From: Geotalea daltonii FRC-32
Lineage (GTDB): Bacteria; Desulfobacterota; Desulfuromonadia; Geobacterales; Geobacteraceae
Length of the DNA: 32,000 bases
Reading direction: 5' to 3'
NCBI RefSeq assembly: GCF_000022265.1
Contig: NC_011979.1
Coordinates: forward strand, 420,001 to 452,000
Both the position numbers and the translations under genes were made by a program. Within the stretch, counting starts at the first letter, position 1; the number at the start of each line of letters is the position of its first letter. The notes below the pieces were generated by a model. It ran no database searches. It had not been told where the DNA came from and saw only the letters and a program-made list of their open reading frames with translations. Positions 9,971 through 15,500 of the stretch are shown here, one piece after another.

Positions 9971-12549
9971 CAGGCAGCTCCGCTGGCGAGGTGATCGGAA
10001 TTGTTTCCTGGGGAGCACGGTCCGGTGTCGGAGCGCCCGGCAATCATCGCCGCCAGCTCTTCGGCCTCTCTCCTGTTTCCCAGCGCCTCTTCCACCGCCA
10101 GGAGATTCTCCAGCCATTGGCGGTGTATGGGGAGCAGTTCCACGGAGCGGCGCATGGCTTTTCTCGCCTCGACCGGTTTCTGCTGCTGGAGGAGAGCAGC
10201 GCCGAGAAAGTGGTGGGCCGCTGCATGTGCCGGACGGGCCGCTGTCAGCGTCCGGAAGGCGGCTTCCGCGTCCGTGAATCGGCCTGCCTGGAGGTGCGCC
10301 ATTCCTTCGAGAAAGAGCCCTGCCGGCACGCGGGGAAGGGGAAGGGGGTCGGGCAGGGGGGGGATGTCAGCCAGGGTGCTTTCCAGCGGCTCCAGGTGTT
10401 CTGCATACCGCTTCCATTTTGCCTTGGAGGTGGTATACACCGGTTGGCGCACCTGCCAGACGGATGCGGTCTTCACCGGCCGGTCCAGTTGCCGGAACGA
10501 GAGGACCTCGTCCTCCCACGGCAGTCCCAGGTAATCGATGATCCGGCGTGCCCATCCCTCCACGTCCTCGACCAGGGCATCATAATCCACCTCCAGGATC
10601 TGCCCGGGAAAGACCCGGTGCCAGTGGTCCATCAGACGCTGGTGATCGACCAGCTGTTCACCGATCCAGGCAAGGTCGTAGGCGAAGCCCATGCCGCTGA
10701 ATTTGCAGGCATAGTCCGTAAAGAAGTTGGAGACGGCCACGTCCCGCGGCTCGCGCTTGAGGTGCAGGATTGCCGCGTCGGGAAACAGCAGCTTGATCAG
10801 GCCGATGTGCTCGAAGTTGTGGGGAAGCTTGTCCACGATCCTCTCGGCTGTGGGGGCATAAGCCTGCAGTTGGGCCAGGTGTTTTTCGGCGAAGCGGCGG
10901 GATTCCTCTTTCCCCAGGTCATCGATGCATTCGGGATAGGAGCGCCTCGTTCCCAGCTTCATCTCCCAGGCATTGAACGTGCGGATCAGCTCGGGAATCA
11001 GCGAGAGCTCGCCGGCGCCGAATACCTTGCTGTGGCTCCCCAGGATCTGCTCCACGAGGGTTGTCCCGGAGCGGGGCATGCCGAGGACAAAGGTCGGAAG
11101 CCGGCTCCTTATGCCATAACCGGCGCGGCTCCCCATGAACGCAGCGGAAAACCGGGCCATCTCCCGTTCCACCCGGGCCCGGTGCTGCTCGGGGCGATAG
11201 GAGACGTGTTCCTGTGCCGCCCTGTTGGCCTCGGCCGCAAACTGCCAGGCCCTGTCATAGTCCTCTTTCTTTTCCCACGCTGCCGCCAGGGTAAAGAGCA
11301 GGTGGGACTGCACCGGCCCTTCCAGGCTTGGCCTGCGGGCCGCCAGGGCCAGCTGCTCCAGTACCGCAGTCTCCTCCGGCACCTCCCGGGCCTGGATCAA
11401 CTGGCTCCACCCTTGCAGGGGAGCAATTTCCTTCAGCGTCTGGTAGAGGGCCGTTGCTTCCTCGACGCGCCCCCGCTGCATCAGCAGGTTCCCCAGTCCG
11501 GTGAGGGCCGGTGCGAAACGGGGCGCCAGGGCCAGCGCTTCCCGGTAGGCCCCTTCGGCCTCAGCACGTTGATCTCCTTCTGCCAACACGTGCGCATGGG
11601 CTGCCAAGGCATGGGCTCGGAGGGGACCACCCGTGTCCTCGGTCAGGGCAAGGGCCGTGTCGGCGGCTTCCCTGGCACAATTCACGCCAAGGTGGCGGCT
11701 GCTCAGCATGGCCAGGCACGACCAGAGGCGGGCGTTGTCGGGTTCCTTTTCCAGCGCCCGCTTCAGCCAGTGGGCTGCCTCGCCGAACTGTCCCCGCACC
11801 TGTGCCAGTTCAGCCGCAAGGCCCATCAGATCCGTTTCGTCAGGCATATCCCCCAGCGCATCCATCAGCAGATGCCATGCCTCCTCGTGCTGCCCGCGGG
11901 CGCCCAGCAGATGCACCAGCGCCGCTGTCGCTCCCCGGTCCCCCCGGTCGAAGGCCTGACGCATCATCGATTCGGCCTCTTCTTGCCGGTCAAGGCGAGA
12001 GAGGGCATCTACGCGGGACATGCGGTAGAGATGTTCATCCTTGCCAGGGAGGGGTGCCGCCCGATCCAGGGCTTCCAGCGCCTTTTCCGCCTCTCCCACT
12101 GCCAGGTATCCCCGCGCCAGGTTCAGCCAGGCTCCGCCCGAACCGGAGAGCAGGTCAACCGCCCGTTCCAGCACCGGCAAGGCTTCCGTCACGTGCCCTG
12201 CAGCCAGAAGGCAAGCGCCAAGCCGGGCGGCAACGATCGGATGCCGGTCGTTGCCCTGCCATGCCCGTTGGAGGAAGGGGATGGCCGTCTGTGGGGCTCC
12301 CAGTTTGAACCAGGCACTCCCAACAGAGAGCAGCGTCTCCCTGTCGTCTCGATCTCGGGGGGCAGGAAACTCGGCCAGTACAGCCAGTGCGGTTTTACGT
12401 TCGTTTTCCATGGCTGCCGTGAGGGCATGGGCGGCTCGGGTTCTCGGCGTCTTTGCCTGACTCGCGGCATTGCCGCACTGCAGACCTGCCGGAATCCGCC
12501 GCGAGTAATCTTCGCAGCCTGCGGGCTCAAGGAAAGAAGCATCGGTCAT
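9970..12549 (-). CDS. TPR-repeat / PAPS-dependent sulfotransferase / TPR-repeat fusion protein (cytoplasmic)
   Basis: The 5'-PSB motif LGMPRSGTTLVEQILGSH has PRSGTT encoded at 11059-11076. A 3'-PB-like motif LKREPRDVAVSNFF is also present. Ala/Leu-rich TPR-like repeats span about aa 60-440 and 745-830. No signal peptide is visible. ATGA overlaps occur at both ends (12549 and 9970). Confidence 0.85.
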   Translation of the reverse strand: MTDASFLEPAGCEDYSRRIPAGLQCGNAASQAKTPRTRAAHALTAAMENERKTALAVLAEFPAPRDRDDRETLLSVGSAWFKLGAPQTAIPFLQRAWQGNDRHPIVAARLGACLLAAGHVTEALPVLERAVDLLSGSGGAWLNLARGYLAVGEAEKALEALDRAAPLPGKDEHLYRMSRVDALSRLDRQEEAESMMRQAFDRGDRGATAALVHLLGARGQHEEAWHLLMDALGDMPDETDLMGLAAELAQVRGQFGEAAHWLKRALEKEPDNARLWSCLAMLSSRHLGVNCAREAADTALALTEDTGGPLRAHALAAHAHVLAEGDQRAEAEGAYREALALAPRFAPALTGLGNLLMQRGRVEEATALYQTLKEIAPLQGWSQLIQAREVPEETAVLEQLALAARRPSLEGPVQSHLLFTLAAAWEKKEDYDRAWQFAAEANRAAQEHVSYRPEQHRARVEREMARFSAAFMGSRAGYGIRSRLPTFVLGMPRSGTTLVEQILGSHSKVFGAGELSLIPELIRTFNAWEMKLGTRRSYPECIDDLGKEESRRFAEKHLAQLQAYAPTAERIVDKLPHNFEHIGLIKLLFPDAAILHLKREPRDVAVSNFFTDYACKFSGMGFAYDLAWIGEQLVDHQRLMDHWHRVFPGQILEVDYDALVEDVEGWARRIIDYLGLPWEDEVLSFRQLDRPVKTASVWQVRQPVYTTSKAKWKRYAEHLEPLESTLADIPPLPDPLPLPRVPAGLFLEGMAHLQAGRFTDAEAAFRTLTAARPAHAAAHHFLGAALLQQQKPVEARKAMRRSVELLPIHRQWLENLLAVEEALGNRREAEELAAMIAGRSDTGPCSPGNNSDHLASGAA

Positions 12550-15500: not shown

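Follow-up and report, generated by a model that had tools for sequence, protein, structure and literature searches.

Organization of the locus

The 32,000-nucleotide stretch analysed here (the window) comprises positions 420,001–452,000 of contig NC_011979.1 of Geotalea daltonii FRC-32. Its minus strand carries the gene of a 1129-residue repeat protein, followed by genes encoding a tetratricopeptide-repeat (TPR) protein with a sulfotransferase domain and the TolC-family, ATP-binding cassette (ABC) and HlyD-family components of a type I secretion system (T1SS), of which the repeat protein is the presumed cargo (Table 1). The cargo protein is acidic, with an isoelectric point of 4.37, lacks cysteines, and contains no tyrosine before residue 180. 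It is built of an N-terminal module with a hydrophobic segment, four cadherin repeats, and a C-terminal part of 554 residues (576–1129), which splits into three homologous units of 188, 201, and 165 residues. The original prediction, made from the nucleotide sequence, had placed three units behind four cadherin repeats; this arrangement agrees with the Pfam cadherin match to residues ~172–575 and with unit starts at residues 576, 764, and 965. The region that it had singled out, 12549–14210, corresponds to residues 577–1129 plus the stop codon.

Table 1 Features of the window (positions are those of the 32,000-nucleotide stretch; aa, amino acid residues of the cargo protein unless stated otherwise; ORF, open reading frame).
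Feature	Position	Strand	Remarks
Candidate sigma-70-like promoter	16072–16099	minus	TTGACA, 16-nucleotide spacer, TATTAT; 11/12 consensus matches only
Cargo gene	12549–15938	minus	ATG at 15938, stop codon at 12549–12551; ORF translation of 1129 aa
N-terminal module, aa 1–112	15603–15938	minus	Conserved start MAKKIV..D, then acidic linker
Hydrophobic segment, aa 113–134	15537–15602	minus	GGWWLLGGAGLAAVATGIGLAF; Trp-rich, Gly/Ala-rich; conserved family-wide
Four cadherin repeats, aa 172–575	14214–15425	minus	Pfam PF00028, E = 7e-50, four stretches; linker motifs DxNDN / DVNE
Unit 1, aa 576–763	13650–14213	minus	Subtype A
Unit 1, predicted calcium-loop motif, aa 588–599	14142–14177	minus	DLNANGIRDGED
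Unit 1, acidic motif	14004–14036	minus	GFGADDRIEID; GFGxDD at aa 635
Unit 1, closing strand	13671–13691	minus	QVVDFVH
Unit 2, aa 764–964	13047–13649	minus	Subtype B (most conserved); AYWSD..NALND
Unit 2, predicted calcium-loop motif, aa 776–787	13578–13613	minus	DTDGDGVRDSGE
Unit 2, acidic motif	13440–13472	minus	GFGADDKVELD; GFGxDD at aa 823
Unit 2, closing strand	13050–13070	minus	GLVDFVW
Unit 3, aa 965–1129	12552–13046	minus	Subtype C, terminal
Unit 3, predicted calcium-loop motif, aa 977–988	12975–13010	minus	DANGDGRRDAGE
Unit 3, acidic motif	12852–12884	minus	GFGSDDRLVVD; GFGxDD at aa 1019
Unit 3, closing strand	12570–12587	minus	QVMFVD, then tail SGAGPA
TPR-repeat protein with TPST-like sulfotransferase domain	9970–12549	minus	PF13469, E = 8e-48
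TolC-family outer-membrane factor	8711–10117	minus	Start probably downstream of 10117
T1SS ABC permease/ATPase, LssB/HlyB type	6549–8714	minus	610 bits to TIGR03375
N-terminal extension of ABC protein	8295–8714	minus	~140 residues
HlyD-family T1SS adaptor	5370–6545	minus	321 bits to TIGR01843
S10 serine carboxypeptidase-like gene	3740–5329	minus	Follows the HlyD gene
tRNA	19972–20044		
Roadblock/LC7 and small-GTPase pair	20096–21237		MglB/MglA-like
Pyruvate:ferredoxin oxidoreductase	21347–24928		
recR	24983–25576		
dnaX	26134–27945		
Signal recognition particle (SRP) RNA	27948–28046		
tRNA	28104–28191		
UvrD/PcrA helicase	28337–30595		

The N-terminal module with its Trp-rich segment (residues 1–134) is unusual for a T1SS cargo. 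The flanks of the hydrophobic segment are acidic and not basic, and residues 1–135 have no match in NCBIfam (E ≤ 1) or Pfam (E ≤ 10). The candidate promoter is located about 134 nucleotides upstream of the cargo ATG, and an Rfam scan of the upstream region detected no riboswitch or other Rfam element.

Three homologous units form the C-terminal half of the cargo

Each unit opens with a short β-hairpin (HVVVE..GAxID), which leads into a 12-residue loop with the pattern D-x-[DN]-x-[DN]-G-x-x-D-x-x-E. The loop is followed by a loop-rich stretch terminating in the motif VTxHFNDxP...L.L.GFGxDD.IExD, by a variable β-rich part, and by a closing strand with a hydrophobic-Asp-Phe-hydrophobic pattern, of the VDFV type. 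The loop, the GFGxDD motif, and the closing strand are present in all three units, as had been described from the translation. The variable part is 75–110 residues long, which is shorter than the 115–125 residues estimated originally. The labels A, B, and C used for the subtypes of this variable β-sheet part were coined in this analysis. Pairwise BLAST comparisons of the first ~85 residues of the three units give E-values of 2e-20, 1e-15, and 1e-15. Of the alignment by eye that had been proposed for the entire units, the part that stands is limited to their first ~75–85 residues, hereafter the N-module, whereas the remainder is variable.

The cargo ends in HHFDQVMFVDSGAGPA, which had looked like the beginning of another, fourth unit. 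Alignments of 31 units, and of homologues over their whole unit regions, instead match HHFDQVMFVDSGAGPA to the strands that close units 1 and 2 (VVDFV and LVDFVW) and to the C-terminal ends of homologous proteins (VVFVTSIV, VDFLQSIVPN, and VDFVMNQST), and AlphaFold models the residues VMFV as a β-strand. By these alignments, the cargo finishes with the closing strand of unit 3 and a further six residues. There is thus no fourth unit, and the suggestion that a truncated one serves as the secretion signal falls with it. A similarity between the second half of unit 3 and the N-module (E = 0.01 in a two-sequence search) was judged not significant.

The three units are distinct from the repeats usual in T1SS cargos and from the preceding stalk. 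A search for the GGxGxD pattern over all 1129 residues gave no matches, and the Pfam family PF00353 (HemolysinCabind) did not match the cargo at E ≤ 0.01, which agrees with the reported lack of repeats-in-toxin (RTX) nonapeptides. The cadherin family PF00028 does not match residues 577–1129 at E ≤ 10, nor does it match any of the 31 aligned units.

Predicted structure of the unit

A single unit, the modelling of which had been proposed with the original prediction, has been predicted using AlphaFold2 with the 31-unit alignment as input. Unit 2 forms one compact domain with a predicted local distance difference test score (pLDDT) of 85.5 and a predicted template modelling score (pTM) of 0.85; the pLDDT exceeds 93 across the loop-rich first 70 residues. 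The model contains, in order, a β-hairpin, a long loop with the calcium motif, three short strands around HFND..P..L.L.GFGxDD.IExD, a short helix, a five-strand sheet, two short helices, and the closing strand. In a model of all three units, calculated from an alignment 13 rows deep (pLDDT 71.6, pTM 0.45), the order of secondary-structure elements, including the closing strand, is common to the three units. The low pTM of this model is consistent with units arranged like beads on a string; however, the shallow alignment may also explain it.

By motif, the unit loop is a putative calcium site of the Dx[DN]xDG type. Loops of this type bind calcium in a nearly identical manner in at least twelve fold families (PMC3123361). 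The 12-residue loop resembles that of the EF-hand in having acidic or amide ligands at positions 1, 3, 5, 9, and 12 and a glycine at position 6. By contrast, DSSP analysis of the models indicates that the loop is entered from a β-strand and lacks the flanking helices of the canonical EF-hand; furthermore, its hydrophobic residue is at position 7 and not at position 8.

Foldseek searches with the unit 2 and three-unit models against the PDB, and with the unit 2 model against BFVD, identified no structural neighbour; the best E-values were 1.8, 0.076, and 0.2, with TM-scores below 0.25. The predicted fold of the unit is therefore probably undescribed, as compared with the PDB and BFVD.

The unit shares a loop motif, not a domain, with known families

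The C-terminal half of the cargo has no match in NCBIfam (E ≤ 1) or among PDB sequences (E ≤ 10). The Pfam matches at E ≤ 10 are limited to sub-threshold ones to GEVED, SdrD_B, and EF-hand_5, all on the loop; that to EF-hand_5 has an E-value of 9.8, and that to SdrD_B covers 19 residues and scores 9.8 bits, as opposed to the cut-off of 29.7. Comparison of the 31 aligned units with Pfam yielded scattered single-member chance matches only, and a profile search of PDB sequences with the unit family returned nothing significant. As far as sequence libraries can tell, the unit is a family unnamed in Pfam, NCBIfam, and PDB sequences, in line with the original failure to assign it to a fold.

Many of the weaker matches of the unit profile cover only profile positions 8–44, repeatedly, in proteins with DUF7507, SdrD_B, or DUF11 repeats. 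The SdrD B-like domain (PF17210), DUF7507, and the self-processing module of FrpC from Neisseria share with the unit a strand-plus-loop motif, [FWY]-[ILV]-D-x-N-x-[ND]-G-x-x-D-x-G-E. B domains of SdrD and SdrG are calcium-stabilised folds (PMC6232131). A profile–profile comparison with SdrD-B-like domains using hhalign has a probability of 94%; however, it spans 23 of 203 columns, that is, the strand and the calcium loop, and the likeness ends there. Nothing in these domains corresponds to the unit's GFGxDD motif, variable sheet, or closing VDFV strand. Because the profile–profile match covers the strand and the loop only, the unit appears to share the calcium-loop motif with known domains and not the domain itself, and the span of the match led to the rejection of the unit as a divergent SdrD-B-like domain. 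The FrpC module was also discarded (E = 4.6, with the likeness confined to the D-x-N-x-N-G loop motif), as were FG-GAP or integrin-type repeats, for which there was no Pfam match in support.

Distribution and conservation of the unit family

A word-indexed search of 5.8 billion proteins identified 16 relatives, and an exhaustive profile search of 1.84 billion representatives identified 295 proteins at E ≤ 1e-3, of which 50 have E ≤ 1e-30. The best 150 of the 295 profile matches were re-scored together with the earlier relatives, and the figures in this and the next paragraph hold among the matches listed. At least 80 representative clusters contain at least one N-module. Conservation of the motifs, counted over 180 N-module instances from 80 representative proteins, is far beyond chance. 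In the loop, position 1 is Asp in 98% of the instances, position 3 is Asn or Asp in 97%, position 5 is Asp or Asn in 96%, position 6 is Gly in 96%, position 9 is Asp in 79%, and position 12 is Glu or Asp in 92%. The GFGxDD motif is similarly invariant in its Gly (94%), Phe (98%), and second Asp (99%), and its first Asp is present in 81% of the instances and replaced by Asn in 15%.

The proteins contain 1–10 units across the family and 1–6 in typical members, which are 350–1600 residues long. A typical member begins with MAxK..VV.DK.., continues with an acidic linker and a hydrophobic 20-mer that is rich in Trp and Gly/Ala and has acidic flanks, and ends with the units. The distance from the last closing strand to the C-terminus is 1–7 residues in most non-giant members and under ~50 residues in nearly all complete ones. 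Six giants of 6,300–7,800 residues harbour 6–8 internal units, flanked by repeats of the VCBS-like and Calx-like types. Cadherin, Big, or propeller repeats are inserted in some members. Of the repeats that accompany the units, the cadherin, Big, and VCBS/Calx-like ones are typical of large adhesins. RTX repeats were not found across the family, whose members have 0–2 GGxGxD matches each.

A scan of 185,579 species genomes, queried with six subtype-B units, identified six loci, all from Geobacteraceae or Desulfuromonadaceae; this census is biased to subtype B because of the units that served as the query. The closest genome locus belongs to Geotalea sp. SG265, with 94% identity over unit 2.

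Other members of the family are encoded in tandem arrays of 3–4 paralogues, which occur in uncultured Geobacteraceae (L001, L002, L011, and L013) and in Joint Genome Institute metagenomes (L005, L006, and L015) and whose unit proteins lack cadherin repeats. In the three metagenomic arrays, a 311-residue protein precedes the array. A 344-residue membrane protein encoded upstream of the cargo gene in the window was considered as its kin and found to be unrelated.

The cargo gene is linked to a sulfotransferase and a T1SS

The stop codon of the cargo gene overlaps the ATG of the sulfotransferase gene by one base (TGATG), and by this arrangement the cargo gene is predicted to be translationally coupled to the T1SS operon. 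The gene order unit protein, TPR-sulfotransferase, TolC, ABC, HlyD, or its start, is found at seven loci including the window. The order of the window is repeated in uncultured Geobacter (L003/L010), Geotalea sp. SG265 (L008), Geotalea toluenoxydans (L009), and a metagenome (L014). A second metagenome (L004) has the same order with two additional genes, and in L012 the first two genes are followed by the end of the contig.

The sulfotransferase domain is flanked by TPR arrays. Its motifs for binding 3'-phosphoadenosine 5'-phosphosulfate (PAPS), PRSGTT and REPRDVAVS, are intact, and the protein has no signal peptide. The best PDB matches are protein-tyrosine sulfotransferases (TPSTs), namely 8w5z (E = 5.5e-12), TPST1, and TPST2. 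The arrangement resembles the raxX-raxST-raxA-raxB locus of Xanthomonas oryzae, in which a TPST-like sulfotransferase gene is also located between the substrate and T1SS genes. By analogy with raxX-raxST-raxAB, this suggests that the cargo, or something attached to it, may be sulfated before export. RaxX is a ~60-residue peptide, the leader of which is cleaved by an ABC transporter with a C39 peptidase (PMC4646787, PMC4216712). By contrast, the substrate in the window is a 1129-residue adhesin-like protein, the sulfotransferase contains long TPR arrays, and no C39 domain can be detected in the ABC protein, for which Pfam gave no Peptidase_C39 match at E ≤ 10. On visual inspection, the N-terminal extension of this protein (..HLPVLVWHGGEWQIASHG..) is reminiscent of the inactive C39-like domain found in HlyB-type transporters.

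Several side observations concern the putative modification and the ends of the operon. In L004, a family 4 glycosyltransferase (GT4) gene lies between the cargo and sulfotransferase genes (11776–12972 of that locus), and a PAPS-reductase-family gene follows the HlyD gene (20328–21236), a hint of a modification in which a glycan or a dedicated step of sulfate activation may take part. Single-unit paralogues (P0007 and P0012–P0015; for example L005:2001–3251) have 3–5 tandem DHAYAD repeats in their N-terminal linkers, and another subgroup (P0005, P0008, P0009, and P0016) has a conserved SDADVxYTDHI; the tyrosines of these motifs, in acidic surroundings, could be sulfation sites. The S10 serine carboxypeptidase-like gene occupies the same position after the HlyD gene in Geotalea sp. 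SG265 and G. toluenoxydans, and not in the metagenomic cassettes.

Mosaic conservation of the locus

The tract from 6549 to 14213 of the window has been compared at the protein level with the loci of G. toluenoxydans and Geotalea sp. SG265. The flanking genes, HlyD, and the N-terminus of the cargo are 93–97% identical to those of G. toluenoxydans. By contrast, the C-terminal half of the cargo is 61% identical, the sulfotransferase 67–84%, TolC 77–85%, and the N-terminal 288 residues of the ABC protein, its most divergent part, 68%. The middle tract is closer to that of strain SG265 (85–93%), whose flanks are more distant (78–87%). This mosaic is suggestive of recombination, or else of rapid evolution shared by the exposed part and its transporter. 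Because surface attachment, to minerals as well as electrodes, is of central importance in the Geobacteraceae, a fast-diverging adhesin locus is ecologically interesting.

In the G. toluenoxydans locus (JCM 15764 draft, ~11400–17350), the sulfotransferase, TolC, ABC, and HlyD genes are each split into several tblastn frames, and the annotated cargo (P0001) ends abnormally (..GGWWISSGR). The broken frames are most likely sequencing frameshifts rather than pseudogenes.

Possible role of the units in secretion and at the cell surface

T1SS substrates, in general recognised by an uncleaved C-terminal signal that is needed for export and suffices for it, are exported unfolded, with the C-terminus first, and calcium drives their folding outside the cell; the β-rolls of RTX proteins are the textbook account of how a cargo stays unfolded inside the cell and folds outside. 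It is reasonably likely that the units of the cargo represent an undescribed family of extracellular domains of ~170–220 residues, which forms the distal end of a surface protein exported by the adjacent T1SS. In the calcium-poor cytoplasm, the loop-rich N-modules would be unfolded and the chain would stay export-competent. The last unit, the presumed site of an uncleaved C-terminal signal, would emerge first. Outside the cell, calcium would bind to the loop, and probably also to the acidic cluster GFGxDD..D, and nucleate folding unit by unit. The calcium-dependent cadherin repeats would fold after the units, which would block back-sliding of the chain and yield a rigid stalk. The variable halves of the units would form the exposed tip, probably the binding part, and the conserved N-terminal module with its Trp-rich segment probably holds the protein on the cell. 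Any C-terminal signal is expected inside the last unit, because most non-giant members end just after the closing strand. However, the unit as such would be a domain and not a signal, because internal copies occur in the giants.

The unit loops would bind calcium and may take part in a folding ratchet, a role that is plausible but weaker than in RTX proteins. Several points weigh against the proposed mechanism. There is one EF-hand-like loop per ~190 residues, which is far sparser than in an RTX β-roll, and the cadherin repeats may therefore contribute much more to the ratchet than the units do. Since these repeats are calcium-dependent as well, the units need not be the only ratchet. In the giants, ~2,700 residues follow the units, and a signal function is thus not inherent in the unit. 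The association with secretion genes, the constancy of which had been posed as a question, holds for the seven loci with the T1SS gene order or its start, but the tandem arrays have no T1SS gene within the available flanks. The N-terminal hydrophobic segment could be an inner-membrane anchor. Calcium binding, secretion, and surface location are themselves inferred. Overall, what had been observed in the cargo holds apart from the fourth unit and the length of the variable region, and the interpretation placed on it is partly supported.

A reading that overlaps with the export mechanism and differs in the primary role of the units has a chance only slightly short of even. According to it, the units serve primarily as tip domains for ligand binding or adhesion, such as lectin-like modules that depend on calcium, in which calcium is structural or takes part in ligand binding, and they have no special role in secretion beyond adjoining the signal. 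The units are furthest from the anchor-like N-terminal module, beyond the cadherin stalk, their second halves are highly variable and fall into subtypes, and the giants carry 6–8 internal copies. The low identity of the cargo C-half to that of G. toluenoxydans, relative to the flanking genes, is as expected of an exposed, fast-evolving surface. However, the divergent tract also takes in the sulfotransferase, TolC, and the N-terminal part of the ABC protein, and may therefore reflect one recombination event and not selection on the tip. Moreover, the Foldseek, PDB profile, and Pfam searches revealed no likeness to any lectin or adhesin domain.

The remaining two explanations deny either export of the cargo or the novelty of its units. 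It is improbable that the protein is held in the inner membrane by a Trp-rich signal-anchor, with its repeats and units in the periplasm, and that the T1SS exports something else. A hydrophobic segment of ~20 residues is indeed conserved in most family members, and several paralogue arrays lack adjacent T1SS genes; however, the segment is rich in Gly and Ala and has acidic flanks, which is atypical of a Sec signal-anchor, and the protein is cysteine-free and acidic and contains cadherin repeats. Furthermore, its gene is coupled to the operon by the overlap of start and stop codons, the gene order is kept in seven loci, and there is no other candidate cargo gene in these cassettes. It is slightly less probable still that the unit is a highly divergent form of a known calcium-binding β-sandwich (SdrD-B- or CnaB-like, DUF7507, or DUF11) and not a new domain. 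The weak SdrD_B and GEVED matches at the loop, the many weaker profile matches to DUF7507 or SdrD_B repeat proteins, and the high hhalign probability speak for such an origin. By contrast, the hhalign match is short, the Pfam scores are far under threshold, and the units, at 170–220 residues, are longer than SdrD_B (~112 residues). Foldseek with the model of pTM 0.85 found no Ig-like or CnaB-like neighbour in the PDB.

Relation to known T1SS surface proteins

As a presumed exported surface protein with calcium-loop units, the cargo would work like an RTX or SiiE-type T1SS adhesin, yet without the defining RTX nonapeptides. With the RTX substrates (HlyA, CyaA, and LapA-type proteins) it shares a large, acidic, cysteine-free polypeptide, a gene next to those of the ABC, HlyD, and TolC proteins, predicted calcium-binding repeats near the C-terminus, and the expectation of an uncleaved C-terminal signal and of calcium-driven folding outside the cell. 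Instead of GGxGxDxUx nonapeptides and a β-roll, however, it contains three globular units of ~190 residues with one EF-hand-like loop each. Unlike LapA-type proteins, it has a Trp-rich hydrophobic N-terminal segment in place of a detectable retention module: there was no profile match in the cargo to a LapA-type retention module, a BapA prefix, or a LapG di-alanine site, and TAA-like tripeptides are not conserved across the homologues. No LapG or LapD genes are present among the Pfam-scanned ORFs of at least 150 residues.

SiiE of Salmonella is a non-RTX T1SS adhesin composed of calcium-binding Ig-like repeats, with BIg domains throughout. The cargo is similar to it in being a presumed T1SS surface protein without RTX repeats, the repetitive domains of which would depend on calcium for rigidity. 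By contrast, its stalk of cadherin repeats carries at its end a domain family with no match to a known fold in the PDB or BFVD. The T1SS of Salmonella pathogenicity island 4 (SPI-4) has been reviewed (PMC12607715). The C-terminal module is best filed as an undescribed domain family within the known group of non-RTX, calcium-dependent T1SS surface proteins.

The presence of a second, unrelated calcium-loop module in the position of the RTX repeats would allow the ratchet idea to be tested on a different scaffold. A confidently modelled domain of ~190 residues with no named family or PDB neighbour is also a good target for structure determination and a good candidate for a Pfam entry of its own. 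That the cargo gene is coupled, in a conserved manner, to a gene of a TPST-like sulfotransferase raises the possibility that secreted surface proteins of bacteria are modified post-translationally. It is conceivable, although unlikely, that the locus represents an unrecognised kind of T1SS, in which a cargo with calcium loops in a new fold replaces the RTX β-roll and is sulfated in the cytoplasm, before export, by a TPR-guided TPST-like enzyme. If so, a T1SS with sulfation of a large surface protein would be on record for the first time, and tyrosine sulfation in bacteria would reach beyond the RaxX peptide.

Other genes in the window

The rest of the window (19972–32000) is chromosomal housekeeping and includes genes encoding pyruvate:ferredoxin oxidoreductase, RecR, DnaX, and a UvrD/PcrA helicase, the SRP RNA, two tRNAs, and an MglB/MglA-like pair of a Roadblock/LC7 protein and a small GTPase (Table 1).

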